This document shows, piece after piece, positions 1 to 7,128 of a stretch of 64,000 nucleotides of DNA. Under the pieces are notes generated by a model, which saw nothing but the letters and a program-made list of their open reading frames with translations, had not been told where the DNA came from and did no database searches. Position numbers and translations under genes: made by a program. How positions within the stretch are numbered: the stretch's first letter is position 1; each line of letters starts with the position of its first letter. The stretch is taken from contig DOAO01000009.1 in the NCBI GenBank assembly GCA_003504275.1, forward strand, positions 24,405 through 88,404, read 5' to 3'. Origin of the DNA: Patescibacteria group bacterium (lineage in GTDB: Bacteria > Patescibacteriota > Minisyncoccia > Phycocordibacterales > UBA12445).

Positions 1-1068
1 CTTTGGGCGCTTATTGAGCCGTTTGCTGCTTATGGATTCAACAAGGCACATGCTGCAAGTTATGGCCGTGTGGCCTATCAGACTGCATATTTGAAAGCAA
101 ATTTCCCCGCTGAATATATGACGGCTGTTTTGACCGCTGAATCTGATGATATTGAAAAAATGGGTGAAATTATGGCGGAGTGTAAAAGAATGAAAATACC
201 TGTTTTACCGCCGGATGTAAATCAAAGCGAACAAAGTTTTGCTGTAATAAAAGGTCTGCCTACCATATCTGCGTATGCAGGGCAGACAGGAAGCAATGAT
301 GACAACACGGGTCTGCCTACCGAGGCAGGAGATAGAATCAGGTTTGGATTAAATGCTATCAAAAATCTTGGAACAGAAATCGCTCAATTTATAATTGATG
401 AAAGAAATAAAAAAGGAGAATTTAAAACATTTGGAGACTTCTTGTCGCGAGTTAAACATCGAAATTTAAATAAGAAATCTTTAGATGCTTTAATAAAAGG
501 TGGCGCAATGGATACATTTGGAGAAAGAGGAATGCTTCTTCGGAATATGGATAATGCGCTTTCTTTTAACAAAGAATTATCACGTGACAATGGCGATCAG
601 GCGTCTCTTTTTGGATTATTGCCGGTAAATACAACTGCCCCTGAATTTAAATTAAGGGACTTTCCTCCCGCAACCTTAAAGGAGCGTTTAGATTGGGAAA
701 AAGAATTACTTGGTCTCTATCTTTCCGGTCACCCCTTGCAAAATTTTGAGGAAAAATTTAAGAAAAAAGAAAACACGATTGCATATTTAAAAACTCAGAG
801 TAACGGTAAGCCCGTTGTCGCCGGAGGAATAATAAATGAAGTAAAACTAATAACTACTAAAAAAGCTGAACAAATGGCGTTCGTTAAGATAAGCGACCTT
901 AATGATTCTATTGAAATTGTTGTATTTCCAAAGACACTAGCTCAGTTTAAAGAACTTCTTGTTCCAGATAAAATCGTCGCTATTAAGGGTTCGATGTCTT
1001 TTAGAAATGATACTCCGAGCATTATTGCTGATGCTATAAAAGAATTGGTTCCTGAAATAAAAAAATAA
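1..1068 (+). CDS. dnaE: DNA polymerase III alpha subunit (DnaE), C-terminal part; 5' end lies outside the window
   Basis: ORF open to the window start. The C-terminal beta-clamp-binding/OB-fold region of PolIII alpha is recognisable (YQTAYLKANFPAEYMTAVLT...). Confidence 0.85.
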   Translation, partial: LWALIEPFAAYGFNKAHAASYGRVAYQTAYLKANFPAEYMTAVLTAESDDIEKMGEIMAECKRMKIPVLPPDVNQSEQSFAVIKGLPTISAYAGQTGSNDDNTGLPTEAGDRIRFGLNAIKNLGTEIAQFIIDERNKKGEFKTFGDFLSRVKHRNLNKKSLDALIKGGAMDTFGERGMLLRNMDNALSFNKELSRDNGDQASLFGLLPVNTTAPEFKLRDFPPATLKERLDWEKELLGLYLSGHPLQNFEEKFKKKENTIAYLKTQSNGKPVVAGGIINEVKLITTKKAEQMAFVKISDLNDSIEIVVFPKTLAQFKELLVPDKIVAIKGSMSFRNDTPSIIADAIKELVPEIKK

Positions 1069-1092
1069 AAACCTTCCATGCGGAAGGTTTTT
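1066..1092. terminator. Bidirectional rho-independent terminator between convergent dnaE and mgtC-like genes
   Basis: Hairpin ccttccatgcggaagg flanked by an A-tract and a T-tract. Confidence 0.6.
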
Positions 1093-1106
1093 AAAGAAAC
1101 ATATTT

Positions 1107-1619
1107 TTATTCGCCCTTACATTTTACCTCTCCTTTGTGGTCAATTGTACATTCATCGTTTGTACCAACAAAATGTTTTATTTGGTCTTCTATTCTCCAT
1201 AATACTTTAAATATAAATAGGGTTAGTATTGTTGCGAATATTGCGATTGTATAAAGCTTGTACCCAACAGCCATTCCTATTCCAGCCATGACCCAAAGAC
1301 CTGCGGCGGTGGTGAGCCCCTTTACTGTGTTACCGTGAACGAATATAAGTCCTCCACCGATAAAACCTATACCAACGACGATTTGTGCGGGAAGAAGGAG
1401 AGGATTTATTGCCGAAAAGGAAGCGTATTTAAGGAAAATTATTTCTGAGATAATTACAAAAAGAGCTGCACCCGTGCTTATAAGTGCATAGGTCCTCATT
1501 CCCGCGGTTTTGTGGGCTATAGTCCTTTCAATTCCCAAAATGGTTCCAAGCAACATTGCCACAAGGAGCTGAATTAAAATTGAGATAGATTGGGGATCTA
1601 GAAAATTTAAATTTTGCAT
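1107..1619 (-). CDS. MgtC/SapB family membrane protein
   Basis: The N-terminal LLGxxLGxER...AGxRTxxLxxxGxALF signature of the MgtC family; multi-TM. Confidence 0.75.
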   Translation of the reverse strand: MQNLNFLDPQSISILIQLLVAMLLGTILGIERTIAHKTAGMRTYALISTGAALFVIISEIIFLKYASFSAINPLLLPAQIVVGIGFIGGGLIFVHGNTVKGLTTAAGLWVMAGIGMAVGYKLYTIAIFATILTLFIFKVLWRIEDQIKHFVGTNDECTIDHKGEVKCKGE

Positions 1620-1757
1620 TTTATTTTTTATTCACCCGCCCAAATTTTTACTATAATTTGAATGGTGTTTGCTTGTTAATTTTTTATAAACTATTTTAAT
1701 TTAAAATATTTTTCAAAATTTTGGAGAATAAATTATTTAAATAATTATATCACAACA

Positions 1758-2657
1758 TCAAACAATTTGTTTGAAATCATTTGTTTTAAATCTCACAAAA
1801 AAAGTGGTTCCTCTATTCTTGCCATCGGATTCTGCCCAAATATTACCTCCATGTTTTTCTATTATTTTCTTTGAAACATACAAACTAAGCCCCATACCTT
1901 CTGTGTCGGATAGTTTGGCTTCCTTGCTTCTGTAAAAATTAGAAAAAACAAGGGGTATTTCCTTATGTCCTATTCCAATTCCCGTATCTTCAATCTTAAG
2001 AGTAAAAGCATCTTCTCCTTCTTCATTTGATATTTTTATTTCCCCTCCCTTTGGTGTATATGTTATAGCGTTATTTAGGATAGTTTTAAACACGAATTCA
2101 ATTCTTTTTGTATCGGCATAAACAAAAGGCATTTTTGATGGTAAATCCATTAAAATTTTTAAGCCTTTTTCTTCTGCCTTTTTTTTGATGCTTTCTTTTA
2201 AGGAATTTTCAATTATTTGTCTTAGGTTGGTTGTTTCAAAATGATAGAAAATACTATCCTCTACTTCCGTTGAACCTACCAATACATCTATAATTTCACG
2301 AAGTTTTTCTAGAGAATTTCTTATTTTTTTTACCTCCTCTCTTCTTTGCATTATGTCTATCGCTGTTTCTAGGGAATCGGCAGACCATTCGATTACAGAA
2401 ATAGGTGTTCTGAATTTATGAGTAGCAATCTCAACAAACTGGTCTTTTGTGCGGTTATTTTTTTTAGTTTGGACAAAGAAGAACCAGCCGACAGATATTG
2501 CTAATGTAAGTGCGAGTAATGGAATAAGCCACTCTTCTACAAGAGGTACAGGAAGACCCATTGTTAAGTCATTTCTATAATAAATAACCACTTCAACTAA
2601 AAGGATGAGCGTGGATAGTGAAATTGCTTTTTTAAATAATTCTTTTGTTCCGTCCAT
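1758..2657 (-). CDS. Sensor histidine kinase (two N-terminal TM helices, HisKA and HATPase_c domains)
   Basis: HKFRTP H-box, then N/G1/G2 boxes (IKISNEEGEDAFTLKIEDTGIGIG...GMGLSLYVSKKIIEKHGG). Start moved to the ATG at 2657 because the longer ORF runs into the tRNA region. Confidence 0.8.
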   Translation of the reverse strand: MDGTKELFKKAISLSTLILLVEVVIYYRNDLTMGLPVPLVEEWLIPLLALTLAISVGWFFFVQTKKNNRTKDQFVEIATHKFRTPISVIEWSADSLETAIDIMQRREEVKKIRNSLEKLREIIDVLVGSTEVEDSIFYHFETTNLRQIIENSLKESIKKKAEEKGLKILMDLPSKMPFVYADTKRIEFVFKTILNNAITYTPKGGEIKISNEEGEDAFTLKIEDTGIGIGHKEIPLVFSNFYRSKEAKLSDTEGMGLSLYVSKKIIEKHGGNIWAESDGKNRGTTFFVRFKTNDFKQIV

Positions 2658-2749
2658 TTTATCTTGTAAATTAGTTTTTTGAGATGTAATATTATCCAAG
2701 TATAACAATATATATATAGTGGCACAAATGCCTTTCGGAATGTGGTGTT

Positions 2750-2781
2750 CGCCCGTACCGAACGGAATACGTTCGGGCGGG
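2750..2781. repeat. GC-rich palindromic mini-insertion, copy 1 (cgcccgtaccgaacgg-aatac-gttcgggcggg), inserted between D-loop positions 13 and 14 of the pseudo-tRNA-Pro
   Basis: Outer stem cgcccg/cgggcg and inner stem ccgaacg/cgttcgg, both perfect. About 70% GC in an AT-rich genome. Same family as the elements at 14613-14646 and 14815-14847. Confidence 0.7.
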
Positions 2782-2789
2782 AACGGTAA

Positions 2790-2820
2790 TCCCAGTAGTA
2801 GAGCAAGGCTCACTACGGGA
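2790..2820. repeat. Second hairpin insertion in the pseudo-tRNA-Pro (tcccagtagtagagcaaggctcactacggga)
   Basis: Stem tccc.gtag/ctac.ggga with a one-base bulge; absent from the genuine tRNA-Pro. Confidence 0.4.
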
Positions 2821-2853
2821 CAGGCATATACGATTCGCCCTCCTAAATTTTAT

Positions 2854-2925
2854 CGGAACATGGTGTAACGGTAACATACACGATTCGGGTTCGTGTGACT
2901 CTGGGTTCAAATCCCAGTGTTCCGA
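2854..2925 (+). tRNA. tRNA-Pro (anticodon CGG)
   Basis: Hand-folded cloverleaf: acceptor CGGAACA/TGTTCCG with C1:G72; D-stem GTGT/ACAT with conserved GG; anticodon stem CACGA/TCGTG, loop TTCGGGT; T-arm CTGGG-TTCAAAT-CCCAG; discriminator A. CCA not encoded. Confidence 0.85.
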
Positions 2926-3101
2926 TAAGTCACAGCAAACAAATATTTTTTGTTTGCGTTGGGATTTGAAAGCCACAGCGATGTGTGAGTTTGTGCGGAG
3001 CACAAGGCGAACACCGCAAGGCGGGGTCGAGAAAAATTTTCGTCAGAAAATTTGTTCGTGACCAAATCCAGGCATTCCAATTAATAACATTAATAAAATT
3101 T

Positions 3102-4847
3102 ATGGAAAAAGAAAATAAATTGCACAATATAAGACATTCTCTGGCACACATTCTTGCCATGGCTGTGTTAAAAAAAGACCCCGAGGCGAAACTCGGTATC
3201 GGTCCTGTTATAGATAACGGATTTTATTATGATTTTCTTCTCTCAAAACCGCTAAAAGACGAGGATTTGAAAGATGTTGAGAAAACAATGAAGAAAATTA
3301 TTTCTCAAAATATAGAATTTTCTTCTAAGGAAATATCCGCAAAAGATGCGGAGGAAATGTTCGCGAACCAACCTTTCAAACTCGAACTCATAAAAGAGCT
3401 TTCTGAGGAGGATGCAAAACTCAGTGTTTACACATCCGGAGAATTTTCGGATTTATGCAAAGGACCACACGTCAAAATCTCAAAAGAAATAAACACTGAC
3501 GCTTTTAAATTAAAGAGCATCGCCGGAGCATATTGGAGAGGAAGCGAAGATAATCAGATGCTCACAAGAATTTACGGATTATCTTTTGAGACAAAAGACG
3601 AATTGACTGAATATTTAAATATGCTTATTGAAGCAGAAAAGAGAGATCACAGAAAGATTGGAAAAGAACTGGAGTTGTTTACCTTCGATGACGATGTTGG
3701 ACCAGGACTCCCTCTTTGGATGCCAAACGGAACAGTAATAGTTGATGAGCTAGAGAAACTTGCAAAAGAAACGGAAACTAAGGCTGGATATGTGAGGGTT
3801 CGAACTCCCCATATTGCAAAAGAATCAATGTATCTAACGAGCGGACACCTTCCTTATTACAAAGACAGCATGTTCCCCCCAATGGAATATGAGGGTGGAA
3901 AATATTACTTAAGAGCGATGAATTGTCCCCATCACCATAAAATATTCGGCGCAAGAGGCAGAAGTTACAGAGAACTACCCCTTAGACTAGCTGAATATGG
4001 TACTGTTTATAGACACGAAAAATCAGGTGAGCTTTTTGGATTAATGAGAGTGCGAGTCTTAGAGATGAATGATGCGCACATTTACTGCACGAAGGAACAA
4101 TTCGAATCCGAATTTAAAGCAGTCAATGATATGTATCTAAAATATTTTGATCTTTTTGGTATCAAAAAATATGTAATGAGGTTTTCAACACATGATCCAA
4201 AGAGACTCGGAGATAAATATGTAAATGAACCTGCATTATGGAAAGAGACCGAGGATATGGTAAGAAAAGTATTAGTTGACGCAAAAATTCCTTTTATTGA
4301 AATACCAAACGAAGCCGCTTTCTACGGACCAAAAATTGACGTTCAAGTATGGAGCGCGATTGGAAGAGAATTTACTCTTGCTACTAATCAGGTTGACTTC
4401 GCTGTTCCAAAAAGATTTGGGCTAACCTACAAAGACGAGAACAATGAGGAAGTCACGCCTCTCTGTATTCACAGAGCTCCGCTCGGAACACACGAGAGAT
4501 TTATCGGGTTCCTTATTGAGCACTATGCCGGACTTTTCCCAACATGGCTTTCTCCTATACAATTATCAATTCTTCCTATCAGTGAGAAACAGGTTAGATA
4601 TGCAGAAGTAGTAAGAGATGCTTTCCTCGAAGCAGGTGTTCGAGTAGAACTAGATGGAGATAACGAAAGTCTCGGTAAAAAAATAAGAGAGAGCAAGAAA
4701 AAGAAAATTCCATATATGATAATTATCGGGGAAAAAGAGGCATCTAGCGGTATGATTACTGTAGAATCAAGAAACGGAAGCCTTGGAGAAAAGAAAATTG
4801 AGGACTTTGTCGCTGAAATAACCCAAGAAATAAAGGATAGAAAATAA
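3102..4847 (+). CDS. thrS: Threonine--tRNA ligase, short form beginning at the editing/second-additional domain (no N-terminal TGS domain)
   Basis: HSLAHIL zinc motif, class II catalytic motifs (FRAE-like, GGG) and a C-terminal anticodon-binding domain. The in-frame ATG at 3102 sits in AT-rich context; the upstream extension is GC-rich leader sequence and unlikely to be coding. Confidence 0.85.
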   Translation: MEKENKLHNIRHSLAHILAMAVLKKDPEAKLGIGPVIDNGFYYDFLLSKPLKDEDLKDVEKTMKKIISQNIEFSSKEISAKDAEEMFANQPFKLELIKELSEEDAKLSVYTSGEFSDLCKGPHVKISKEINTDAFKLKSIAGAYWRGSEDNQMLTRIYGLSFETKDELTEYLNMLIEAEKRDHRKIGKELELFTFDDDVGPGLPLWMPNGTVIVDELEKLAKETETKAGYVRVRTPHIAKESMYLTSGHLPYYKDSMFPPMEYEGGKYYLRAMNCPHHHKIFGARGRSYRELPLRLAEYGTVYRHEKSGELFGLMRVRVLEMNDAHIYCTKEQFESEFKAVNDMYLKYFDLFGIKKYVMRFSTHDPKRLGDKYVNEPALWKETEDMVRKVLVDAKIPFIEIPNEAAFYGPKIDVQVWSAIGREFTLATNQVDFAVPKRFGLTYKDENNEEVTPLCIHRAPLGTHERFIGFLIEHYAGLFPTWLSPIQLSILPISEKQVRYAEVVRDAFLEAGVRVELDGDNESLGKKIRESKKKKIPYMIIIGEKEASSGMITVESRNGSLGEKKIEDFVAEITQEIKDRK

Positions 4848-4930
4848 TTTTATCTAATTCACAGCTTATTAACAGGTTTGGGCACTTTTTCAAGCTTCTT
4901 ACCCGTTTCTTCATGTGCTAAATTATATCT

Positions 4931-6328
4931 ATGGCACAAGGAATGACTCCAATAAAAACAACTCTTCGTACTCCCCCGCACGACACTGATGCAGAGAAGG
5001 CATTTTTGGGTTCAATACTTTTGCGTTCCCAGAGTATTCCTGATATTGCGGACATGATAGATCCTGATTCTTTTTACTCTGGTAAAAATTCGATTGTTTA
5101 TAAAACAATATTTGATCTATATACAAAAGGTGAGCCGATAGATTTAGTTTCTCTTTCATCCAGATTAAAGGAAAAGAATTATTTAGAACAAGCTGGTGGC
5201 TCAAGTTATTTGGCAGAGCTTATAAACACAGTTCCCTCTTCTACTAACGTTGAGCACTACGCAAGAATAATCCAGAAAAAACATATACTGAGAAAACTTA
5301 TAGAATCAGGAGACCATGTGTCTGAGCTCGGTTTTAGCGAACATCGAGAAGTTGAAGATGTTCTTGTTGAGGCAGAGAAAAAAATATTGGGAGTTAGCGG
5401 TTCTTTGCTTAAAAATAAATTTATTCCAATAAGTAAGACTCTTACTGAAGCATGGGAGAGATTGGATAGATTAAATAAATCAGACGGAGAAACAAGAGGT
5501 ATTCCAACTGGATTTAAGGGACTAGACGACAAACTTTCCGGCCTCCAAAAATCAGATCTTATTATTCTTGCCGCCAGACCGTCTGTTGGAAAGACTAGCT
5601 TGGCACTAGATCTAGCAAGACAGGCTGCTTGTAAATTTAATGTCCCTGTTGGTATCTTTTCCCTAGAAATGGGATCTCAGCAATTAGCCGATAGAATGGT
5701 CGCAGCAGAATCTGGTGTAGATTCTTGGAAGCTCAGAACAGGCAAAATATCCAGCGATGAAGAATTTGTTGCGATTAGAGAAGCTATGGATAGATTAAAT
5801 AGAGCACCTATTCATATCGACGACGAGGCAAGTAACAATATTCTCAGAATGAGATCTGTTGCCAGAAAGCTGAAAAGAGACTCTGGGCTCGGACTTATAA
5901 TTGTTGATTATTTACAGCTTATGGTTCCCCAGAGGCATTCCGATTCTCTCGTTCAACAGGTTACGGAAATATCAAGATCGTTAAAAATATTAGCCAGAGA
6001 ACTAGACGTACCGGTACTCGCACTTTCTCAGCTAAACAGACAGGTAGAACAAAGAGGAGGTCCGCCAAGACTTTCTGACCTCAGAGACTCCGGTTCTATT
6101 GAGCAAGACGCTGACGTTGTTTTGTTTATTCACAGAGAGGACAAGAACGACAAGAATGCTCCGCCAAATATTGCAAAAATAATCATTGCAAAGCACAGAA
6201 ACGGTCCAACCGGAGAGACCGAGTTATTCTTCGACCAAGAGAGAGTCAGCTTCATGAATATTGATAAAACCGGAGATTCTGGGGGCGGAGGTGCTTCATC
6301 TGCTAATGCCGGATTTGGAGACTTTTAA
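4931..6328 (+). CDS. dnaB: Replicative DNA helicase DnaB
   Basis: DnaB N-terminal domain, Walker A ARPSVGKTSLAL, RecA-like fold, C-terminal Gly-rich tail. Confidence 0.9.
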   Translation: MAQGMTPIKTTLRTPPHDTDAEKAFLGSILLRSQSIPDIADMIDPDSFYSGKNSIVYKTIFDLYTKGEPIDLVSLSSRLKEKNYLEQAGGSSYLAELINTVPSSTNVEHYARIIQKKHILRKLIESGDHVSELGFSEHREVEDVLVEAEKKILGVSGSLLKNKFIPISKTLTEAWERLDRLNKSDGETRGIPTGFKGLDDKLSGLQKSDLIILAARPSVGKTSLALDLARQAACKFNVPVGIFSLEMGSQQLADRMVAAESGVDSWKLRTGKISSDEEFVAIREAMDRLNRAPIHIDDEASNNILRMRSVARKLKRDSGLGLIIVDYLQLMVPQRHSDSLVQQVTEISRSLKILARELDVPVLALSQLNRQVEQRGGPPRLSDLRDSGSIEQDADVVLFIHREDKNDKNAPPNIAKIIIAKHRNGPTGETELFFDQERVSFMNIDKTGDSGGGGASSANAGFGDF

Positions 6329-6369
6329 AGCGAAACTTGAAGTAATCCAGATTTATTTTTTTATTTTTT

Positions 6370-6978
6370 ATGGACCCTATCACACAGCTAACCGAAATAT
6401 TTTCCCACTTCCCGGGTATTGGCCCAAGACAGGCCAAGCGATTTGTTTTTTATTTGCTTGGACAAAACGATTCTGCTAACAAAAAAATTGCCGACCTTAT
6501 TGTTGAGTTAAAAAAAGACATAAATTCATGCACGAGATGTATGCGATTTTTTAGCGATGGTCAAAAAAGCTCCTTGTGCAACATATGCAGTGACGAAAGT
6601 CGTGACAAGACGAAACTACTCATTATCGCTAAAGACGTCGATTTGGACAATATAGAGCGGTCTAGAAGCTATGAAGGTCTTTATTTTGTACTTGGCGGAC
6701 TTGTTCCGATACTTGATAAGAATCCGGAAGAAAGAATTAGACAATTTGAACTAAAAAGAGAAGTTGAGAGAAACACAGACCTCAAAGAAATAATAATTGC
6801 GCTCTCCGCAACGGTTGAGGGAGACCACACGGCAGAATATATTCGTGAATCTTTTAAGACAATAACAGAACCGAGAGGAATAAAGGTGTCTGTATTAGGT
6901 AGAGGCCTGTCCACTGGTACAGAACTTGAATATTCTGATATAGATACAATAAAGAACGCCCTTAAGCATCGAGAATAA
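6370..6978 (+). CDS. recR: Recombination protein RecR
   Basis: HhH motif (FPGIGPRQAKR), C4 zinc finger (CTRC...CNIC), Toprim domain. Confidence 0.9.
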   Translation: MDPITQLTEIFSHFPGIGPRQAKRFVFYLLGQNDSANKKIADLIVELKKDINSCTRCMRFFSDGQKSSLCNICSDESRDKTKLLIIAKDVDLDNIERSRSYEGLYFVLGGLVPILDKNPEERIRQFELKREVERNTDLKEIIIALSATVEGDHTAEYIRESFKTITEPRGIKVSVLGRGLSTGTELEYSDIDTIKNALKHRE

Positions 6979-7027
6979 TTATTGGTTGGTAGTTTTTATA
7001 GTTTTGCCACTCCTTTTCTCCTCTTTG

Positions 7028-7128
7028 TGTCATTCCGACTTTATGGAGGTCGACGGAGATTAACGTCGACATCTGTAGACGAGAATCGCTTATAGTTTAA
7101 GAGATCTCTCGACAAGCTCGAGATGACA
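7028..7128 (+). repeat. ~100-bp element with terminal inverted repeats, copy A (TIR tgtcatYYcgaS ... StcgRRatgaca)
   Basis: About 80% identical to the reverse complement of 9177-9275. The internal hairpin gtcgac-N10-gtcgac shows compensatory changes in the other copy (gtcgcc-N9-ggcgac). Confidence 0.65.

Follow-up and report, generated by a model that had tools for sequence, protein, structure and literature searches.

Why should an intact transfer RNA (tRNA) gene be preceded by a broken, hairpin-bearing copy of its own 5′ half? This question is raised by the tRNA-Pro(CGG) gene in a 64-kb stretch of DNA (hereafter, the window) from a Patescibacteria (Parcubacteria) genome, that of a groundwater bacterium with a tiny genome. 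ARAGORN and Rfam agreed on two tRNA genes in the window, tRNA-Pro and tRNA-Glu, and the tRNA evidence from this genome consists of these two loci. Both are preceded by 5′ remnants of the gene and followed by a structured element, here called the D-element, that ends in a repeat of the gene's 3′ end. The explanation that we prefer, at a little below an even chance, is that loop-targeted insertion, or end replacement, by small, protein-less, hairpin-rich modules has left these structures as scars at tRNA genes. The pseudo-5′ half upstream of tRNA-Pro is probably the displaced left remnant of an older tRNA-Pro gene and not a fresh copy of the present one. The two intact genes are as follows.

2854-2925, + strand: intact tRNA-Pro(CGG), found by ARAGORN and Rfam (62.7 bits)
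14377-14448, − strand: intact tRNA-Glu(CTC), found by ARAGORN and Rfam

The pseudo-5′ half upstream of tRNA-Pro

Positions 2736-2837 were found to be a colinear copy of positions 1-35 of tRNA-Pro(CGG), with 31 of 34 aligned bases identical. The copy falls into three blocks, separated by two hairpins and followed by a short spacer.

2736-2748, + strand: block 1, tRNA positions 1-13 (acceptor 5′ strand, positions 8-9 and D-stem 5′ strand); CGGAATGTGGTGT versus CGGAACATGGTGT, 11/13 identical
2749-2781, + strand: GC-clamp hairpin hp1, an insert between positions 13 and 14
2782-2789, + strand: pseudo D-loop (positions 14-21), AACGGTAA, 8/8 identical to the gene
2790-2824, + strand: second hairpin hp2, an insert at 21/22 or 22/23
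2825-2837, + strand: block 3, from position 22 (D-stem 3′ strand, anticodon stem 5′ strand, and loop to G35); CATATACGATTCG versus CATACACGATTCG, 12/13 identical
2838-2853, + strand: spacer of 16 nucleotides (nt), CCCTCCTAAATTTTAT, with no relation to tRNA

The mismatches of block 1 lie at positions 6-7 (TG in place of CA), and identity to the gene ends after G35, inside the anticodon, where ATTCG is followed by CCCTCC in the copy and by GGTTCG in the gene. An earlier note on this DNA had described a degenerate copy of positions 1-35 diverging in the anticodon, which was borne out; the one hairpin insert that it reported in this copy proved to be two. The first of these, hp1, has a GC outer stem and, beyond a bulge, an inner stem of 7 bp (CCGAACG/CGTTCGG) with a loop of 5 nt. 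Across the junction between the D-loop and hp2, the 9-mer AATCCCAGT (2788-2796) equals positions 58-66 of the tRNA-Pro T-arm, which may be chance.

The gapped local alignment score of the copy was 37.7, compared to 18.9 ± 3.5 (maximum 32.6) in 500 dinucleotide shuffles and to a maximum of 31.5 among 298 other 200-nt windows, and comparison of the tRNA-Pro 5′ half against the 300 nt upstream gave z = 8.3. The 15 nt before the copy (GGCACAAATGCCTTT) and the 15 nt before the gene (CCCTCCTAAATTTTA) are dissimilar, and a simple tandem duplication of tRNA-Pro was therefore ruled out. Since a promoter cannot fit in the 16-nt spacer, the upstream pseudo-unit (Pro-U) is probably transcribed as a 118-nt 5′ leader that is cleaved off by ribonuclease P; plausible promoters were located only upstream of the pseudo-units.

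The 3′ remnant of tRNA-Pro and pairing across the locus

Downstream of tRNA-Pro, the D-element is entered through a small hairpin and overlaps a second, decayed piece of the tRNA gene.

2935-2957, + strand: AT-rich hairpin between tRNA-Pro and the D-element, a weak terminator at best
2959-3073, + strand: D-element of tRNA-Pro, D(Pro), in which helix P1 is the complement of the T-loop/T-stem 3′ strand paired with the T-arm 3′ copy, and P2 and P3 hold the invariant core GGCGGGGTCGAG
3063-3080, + strand: decayed direct repeat of tRNA-Pro positions 56-73, CAAATCCAGGCATTCCAA, 13/18 identical

This 3′ copy lies 330 nt downstream of the pseudo-half, and its CATTCC (3073-3078) pairs with GGAATG (2737-2742) at the pseudo-5′ end. 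The working tRNA-Pro has GGAACA and TGTTCC at these places, and the changes of the remnant at positions 6-7 are compensated at 66-67. Because of this compensation, the outer pieces (2736-2837 and 3063-3080) look like halves of one older tRNA-Pro allele with the working gene in between, a suggestion of modest strength that is read from the sequence. To call the upstream copy a duplicate of the present gene, as the earlier note did, is accordingly doubtful, and a displaced half of the older allele describes it better.

The minimum-energy fold of 2733-3082 closes on the GGAATG/CATTCC helix. Positions 2744-2753 are also perfectly complementary over 10 bp to positions 3006-3015 of the D-element (GGCGAACACC), so that in this fold 17 contiguous bases (2737-2753) pair with 3006-3015 and 3072-3078. 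The complement of the D segment GGCGAACAYC was absent upstream of the other four loci that share the segment, and the 10-bp pairing between Pro-U and the D-element is therefore specific to the tRNA-Pro locus.

The tRNA-Glu locus

At tRNA-Glu, two pseudo-units stand upstream of the gene and two D-element copies downstream of it.

14661-14888, − strand: pseudo-unit A, whose 5′ part (1-34) comes from a diverged allele (GGCCCTA, D-loop AATGGTTA) and is followed by a multi-hairpin body, positions 44-57 and a 24-nt spacer
14862-14873, − strand: 12-nt palindrome of unit A, beside the D-stem
14815-14847, − strand: GC hairpin of unit A, at 21/22
14450-14660, − strand: pseudo-unit B, with 5′ part 1-34 identical to the gene, a body, positions 44-57 and the same 24-nt spacer as unit A
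14612-14646, − strand: GC hairpin of unit B, at 13/14
14308-14369, − strand: two-way terminator hairpin (14340-14369), then a perfect 19-nt inverted copy of the tRNA-Glu 3′ end (14308-14326)
14216-14319, − strand: copy D1 of the D-element, which scores 95 bits with model R1 and terminates in a direct repeat, 10 nt long, of tRNA-Glu positions 56-65
14093-14191, − strand: D2-type variant with a T-arm-derived P1 and two hairpins, ending in a 15-nt direct repeat of tRNA-Glu positions 57-71

Units A and B are arranged in tandem, and the 5′ part of each stops at C34. The claim that a second tRNA of the window has 5′ duplicates broken at the anticodon thus stood, with breaks at 35/36 in tRNA-Pro and at 34/35 in both units of tRNA-Glu. 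Both left remnants stop at position 57, and both right remnants begin at 56-58. All tRNA-derived blocks of unit B are identical to the tRNA-Glu gene; the acceptor allele of unit A, GGCCCTA, was also present in another Patescibacteria tRNA-Glu (L085). The bodies of ~110 nt have common junction sequences (GAGAGGTTGAG .. CGAAAGACCT .. AGGTGTACTG) and, in the same places, hairpins of wholly different sequence. A 76-nt segment made up of spacer and tRNA start was 98.7% identical between the junction of A with B and that of B with the tRNA, as expected if one module type was inserted twice. The palindrome of unit A has GTCT on either side and reuses D-stem sequence.

As a separate observation, the 3′ 19 nt of tRNA-Glu, the terminator and the inverted copy form a ~90-nt palindrome (14308-14396, − strand) that as RNA would compete with the cloverleaf fold. 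The motif GGTTGAG-hairpin-CGAAAG in the tRNA-Glu bodies resembles a hammerhead core by eye and was rejected as one, lacking C3, U4 and A6. In L085, the region upstream of tRNA-Glu(CTC) (840-940, − strand) holds several AGCTTCT..AAGCT copies resembling the gene's own anticodon arm.

The GC-clamp hairpins

The pattern CGCCCG..CGGGCG occurred at three sites in the 64 kb, compared to none expected, and all three were inside pseudo-units; no further GC-clamp hairpin of this kind was present elsewhere in the window, and none of this form was found in ~650 kb of other Patescibacteria loci. Pro hp1 (13/14) and the unit A hairpin (21/22) were 94% identical over 32 nt, although their loci lie 12 kb apart and the sequence is not flank-derived. 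The unit B hairpin (13/14) has the architecture of Pro hp1 with a different inner stem. The D-loop is closed by the pair 13:22, of which 13/14 and 21/22 form the two sides, and the sites are therefore structurally equivalent and not identical. The earlier statement that the hairpin occupies an identical D-loop position consequently holds for Pro-U and unit B, and all three hairpins do lie beside the D-loop, but unit A departs from it. Apart from the hairpin and the blocks of tRNA origin, nothing was shared by the Pro unit and the Glu units. The breakpoints and insertions (13/14, 21/22, 34-36 and 56-58) are all in or at the edge of tRNA loops.

A conserved structured element downstream

The D-element, of ~110 nt, is present downstream of both tRNA genes of the window. 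Its plan begins with the complement of the T-loop/T-stem 3′ strand and AAAGCC, runs through a variable hairpin to GGCGGGGTCGAG and an AT hairpin, and closes with GTGACC and the T-arm 3′ strand. A metagenome scan with the core of the element gave six true loci (L083, L084, L085, L086, L088 and L089) and one chance match in a GC-rich stretch. The true loci follow tRNA-Arg(TCT), tRNA-Gly(TCC), tRNA-Glu(CTC) and three transfer-messenger RNA (tmRNA) genes, in other Patescibacteria of 31-48% GC. In all but one of the six, a direct repeat of the 3′ end of the gene comes after the element and extends from the T-loop (56-58) to approximately the CCA end; the repeat starts at 56-58 in L084, L086, L088 and L089, and exact stretches of 16 nt at tRNA-Arg and 21 nt at tRNA-Gly were confirmed. 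The first helix is re-tailored to the T-arm of each host gene. No locus found through the core had an upstream 5′ fragment that could be a left remnant.

A covariance model found 12 D-element copies, every one of them in such tRNA or tmRNA contexts or at contig ends. In the alignment, which was fitted to the model, 94.7% of cells were paired and 19 of 28 pairs had changed on both sides, a result reached by 0 of 500 shuffles and compared to 36-54% in slid controls. Fold energies are lower for the tRNA strand, and an invariant G-U pair likewise favours an RNA made from it; the reverse-strand reading was rejected, as the fold is weaker and the invariant G-U becomes an A-C mismatch. Searches of both loci with Rfam, at the gathering score and at E ≤ 10, returned the two tRNAs only and no D-element family. 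Neither the D-element core nor the GC hairpin had a match in scans of viral contigs, blastn of both loci against phage genomes gave none, and a protein database searched with conceptual translations of the conserved units, in which spurious open reading frames (ORFs) were sought, gave none either. The D-element is a conserved, undescribed structured element, and as such it is well supported.

The occurrence of this element at five tRNA identities and at tmRNA ties the phenomenon to tRNA gene architecture, as the earlier note had held in proposing a process that acts on tRNA structure and not on one sequence; whether a single structure-recognising process is responsible is the part of that proposal we would put only conditionally. 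The D2 variant follows the plan of the D-element in different sequence. A motif consisting of TACTG and a 4-bp hairpin with a GTA loop was present in D2 and in the bodies of units A and B, its sole three occurrences in ~0.7 Mb on both strands, which indicates that the upstream bodies and the downstream modules are related.

Two further observations concern the surroundings of the element. The motif AAACTGCTTTG was seen in three genomes (window 14195-14215, − strand; L085; L088) in or beside a hairpin preceding D-elements, and this hairpin may belong to the element. At two tmRNA loci, L084 (1793-2017) and L089 (~960-1190), the T-stem alleles of the gene and of the repeat behind the D-element are reciprocal: GCGGG/CCCGC belongs to the gene and CCCCC to the repeat in L084, and the L089 gene has GGGGG/CCCCC where its repeat has CCCGC. 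A replacement of the whole arm, or an exchange of sequence between the gene and its repeat, is hinted at.

Genomic context

The threonyl-tRNA synthetase (ThrRS) of the window was 100% identical to that of the NCBI genome GW2011_GWF2_38_76; the next relative had only 82% identity and a different synteny. Among 80 related ThrRS loci, none had tRNA-Pro upstream of thrS, and the closest relative (L001) had a plain AT-rich spacer there and no tRNA. In the window, the position before thrS is taken by tRNA-Pro and its D-element. The thrS genes of L017 (~200-260), L046 (~2900-2975) and L074 (~2880-2950) are preceded by GGAACCGCG and a GC-rich terminator hairpin, which look T-box-like; the Rfam T-box model scored below its gathering score in these three regions, and the T-box guess is unconfirmed.

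Just downstream of the tRNA-Glu array, three small ORFs, one encoding a SET-domain protein, are each preceded by a ~180-nt sequence (12962-13137, 13592-13770 and ~14006-14059, − strand). These sequences are mutually 92% identical and each ends in a Shine-Dalgarno site, in a cassette-like layout.

Loop-targeted insertion as the preferred explanation

Each tRNA gene of the window has beside it direct repeats of tRNA segments that run from a loop to an end of the gene (positions 1-35 and 56-73 of tRNA-Pro; 1-34/44-57 twice, 56-65 and 57-71 of tRNA-Glu), and the breakpoints are in the anticodon loop or the T-loop (35/36 in tRNA-Pro; 34/35 and 57/58 in tRNA-Glu). The order of gene, D-element and 3′-end repeat is the one classically left by a site-specific insertion in which the target gene is regenerated. 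Crossovers located in loops, with regeneration of the target, are known integrase behaviour at tRNA and tmRNA genes (PMC4383910; PMC1762012 for T-loop integration). At an unrelated Patescibacteria tRNA-Phe (L029, 6320-6510, − strand), a 5′ fragment (positions 1 to ~22) lies at -73 and a 21-nt 3′ fragment (54-74) at +23, with no hairpin modules.

We propose that small DNA modules, rich in hairpins, without proteins and directed at tRNA loops, may have interrupted an older tRNA-Pro or replaced its ends. A T-loop insertion would first have delivered a new 3′ end along with the D-element, and an anticodon-loop event would then have delivered a new 5′ part; the intermediate between the two events would have had U6-G67 and G7-U66 wobble pairs, which should be tolerable. 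A single cassette with a whole replacement tRNA could have served in place of the two events. The old tRNA halves would have been displaced outwards, and the tRNA-Glu locus would have been hit twice, leaving two left and two right remnants. The GC hairpins would be a later addition, on either side of the D-loop closing pair. They might represent a small palindrome that prefers D-arm DNA and survives in dead copies only, or they might reflect survivorship, remnants with long unbroken homology to the gene having been lost by direct-repeat deletion. Survivorship would also account for the fact that most D-element loci are without a left remnant.

Several points weigh against this explanation. No integrase, transposase or other mobility gene was found in or near the repeats (Pfam gene lists and scans), no ORF lies between them, and the putative elements are merely 16-200 nt. 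There is no empty-site allele or close relative for comparison, the other assemblies all being of the same strain, and duplication on the 5′ side is a rare orientation among integrative elements. The model alone leaves the GC hairpin beside the D-loop in all three remnants unexplained. The compensatory evidence in the acceptor stem concerns two positions only, with a chance probability of ~0.06-0.1, and requires the 3′ remnant to be ungapped, in which case its T-stem strand CCAGG is imperfect compared to CTGGG in the gene. The outermost 3′ remnant of tRNA-Glu (TAAGGTT) matches the acceptor of unit B better than that of unit A, so that strict nesting is not clean. D-element copies in L085 are without tRNA-derived flanks, which indicates that the scaffold can occur without an att-like repeat (att, attachment site).

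A bolder version of loop-targeted insertion holds that Patescibacteria carry a family of protein-less structured cassettes that home to tRNA and tmRNA loops and bring in a replacement gene or gene end, the tRNA-derived segments acting as folded att sites or as guide-like RNA. We regard this as speculative and rather improbable. The recognition parts would be the anti-T-loop strand of P1, the copy of the 3′ end that follows the scaffold and the 5′ half that precedes the upstream scaffold; the cassettes would be mobilised by a trans-acting enzyme encoded elsewhere, and the GC hairpin would be a third, D-arm-specific module.

Comparison with known systems

The attachment fragments of genomic islands also consist of a partial direct tRNA repeat beside a regenerated intact gene, with breakpoints in the anticodon loop or T-loop and a repeat that runs from the loop to the gene end, and tmRNA genes are hit as well (Islander, PMC4383910; phage Ms6 T-loop integration, PMC1762012). 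In contrast to these, the present loci have no island and no integrase, and their inserts are of 16-200 nt. It is moreover the 5′ part that is duplicated here, the rare orientation; the remnants have hairpin inserts, and in the conserved structure of the 3′ module the first helix derives from the target's own T-arm. In Mesorhizobium, Zhao and Williams (2002) reportedly described reverse-orientation integrative elements that carry the 5′ part of a tRNA gene, in which, as here, the displaced fragment is the 5′ part upstream of a regenerated gene. Those elements are said to be large, integrase-encoding and promoter-supplying, whereas here a 16-24-nt spacer or a 145-nt hairpin module lies between.

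Repetitive extragenic palindromes and bacterial interspersed mosaic elements (REP/BIME), miniature inverted-repeat transposable elements (MITEs) and Rickettsia palindromic elements are short GC-rich hairpins that are copied between loci and tolerated at permissive positions only. The hairpins described here are likewise short, GC-rich and copied among loci. Unlike those elements, they occur only three times in 64 kb, in each case next to the D-loop of a tRNA remnant and never in ordinary intergenic DNA, and they have neither terminal inverted repeats nor target duplications; a dispersed palindrome of REP/MITE type, for which many intergenic copies would be expected, was rejected on this count.

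Integron attC and CTX phage attP are recombination sites made of folded single strands. By analogy only, the P1 stem of the D-element similarly reproduces a target duplex (the 3′ side of the T-loop and T-stem), with variable sequence and conserved structure. In contrast to attC and attP, no cognate recombinase was identified, and the G-U pairs and fold energies favour an RNA from the tRNA strand.

Alternative explanations

An RNA that functions in cis is an unlikely explanation, though several observations favour it. The leader with the pseudo-5′ half and the trailer with the D-element and 3′ copy would pair with each other and hold the enclosed tRNA in a clamp, protect it or set the timing of its processing, or the pieces would serve as mimics or decoys of tRNA fragments. 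The folds were well below those of shuffles (z = -3.6 for Pro-U, -4.8 for unit B and -7.8 for the whole Pro locus), and the 17 contiguous bases 2737-2753 engage in long-range pairing. The hairpins of A and B have been kept in place despite entirely different sequences, and the sites at which hairpins occur are equivalent in structure. Among streamlined genomes of distant lineages the D-element shows conservation with covariation, its invariant G-U favours RNA from the tRNA strand, and the sole plausible promoters are upstream of the units. However, the upstream units were seen in this genome only, no large-scale DNA scan aimed at them having been made, and the loci recovered through the D-element core had no upstream 5′ fragment. 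The 10-bp complementarity is absent from four other loci with the same D segment, the Pro and Glu units share only the hairpin and the tRNA-derived blocks, and a strong two-way terminator stands between tRNA-Glu and its D-elements.

Local replication errors, with no mobile element involved, would explain the structures as slipped-strand or template-switch duplications that then decayed, and the hairpins as quasi-palindrome expansions. tRNA genes are rich in hairpins, and several details are of the kind such errors would leave: the GTCT-flanked palindrome of unit A that reuses D-stem sequence, the perfect 19-nt inverted copy of the tRNA-Glu 3′ end across the terminator, and the bare fragments without a module in L029. 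We nevertheless consider errors alone distinctly unlikely. A GC hairpin of 30 nt recurs with 94% identity at two loci separated by 12 kb and did not come from the flanks, the D-element family is conserved in unrelated genomes, and the flanks of the pseudo-copy are unrelated to those of the gene. The retained blocks are also near-identical where the intervening parts are wholly different, which is unlike uniform decay.

The pseudo-copy might instead be the 5′ exon or half of an interrupted or split tRNA, to be joined to a 3′ part by way of a group I intron at 35/36 or by trans-splicing of the archaeal type. The GC-rich hairpins beside tRNA halves do recall the split tRNAs of Nanoarchaeum. The anticodon-loop position of the Pro break, 35/36, is the site enriched for group I introns in tRNAs of the same phylum (PMC13011429). 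Despite these resemblances, the reading is very improbable: no Rfam intron or ribozyme matched, even at E ≤ 10, and the locus has no intron core and is far too short for one. Only 16 nt follow the Pro break before a complete gene, with no 3′ exon, and the 5′ part ends in G, whereas a group I 5′ splice site needs U. Against a split tRNA, an intact tRNA-Pro(CGG) with the same anticodon adjoins the copy, and the 3′ remnant is without positions 36-55.

An assembly or binning artefact, the concern that the earlier note had raised and to which short-read contigs ending within the repeats could point (L082 begins at window position 2872 and L091 stops at 14693, breaks exactly at repeats being what true repeats would give), is scarcely credible, as different samples and assemblers gave 100% identity over Pro-U (Logan contig SRR6487897_38, L081, spanning window 1-7078) and over the complete tRNA-Glu array (ENA contig ERZ27254744 k141_1409837, L090), and the ThrRS matches that of GW2011_GWF2_38_76.

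Implications

On the practical side, tRNA remnants of this kind break short-read assemblies and can mislead tRNA annotation. The D-element is a concrete candidate for a new class of non-coding RNA or for a new kind of recombination site. If the structures are indeed scars of loop-targeted insertion, the tRNA genes of ultra-small Patescibacteria genomes would be repeatedly rewritten at their loops by gene-less miniature elements. By this route tRNA alleles could be replaced and structured RNA could arise, and the question would follow of which enzyme moves these elements.

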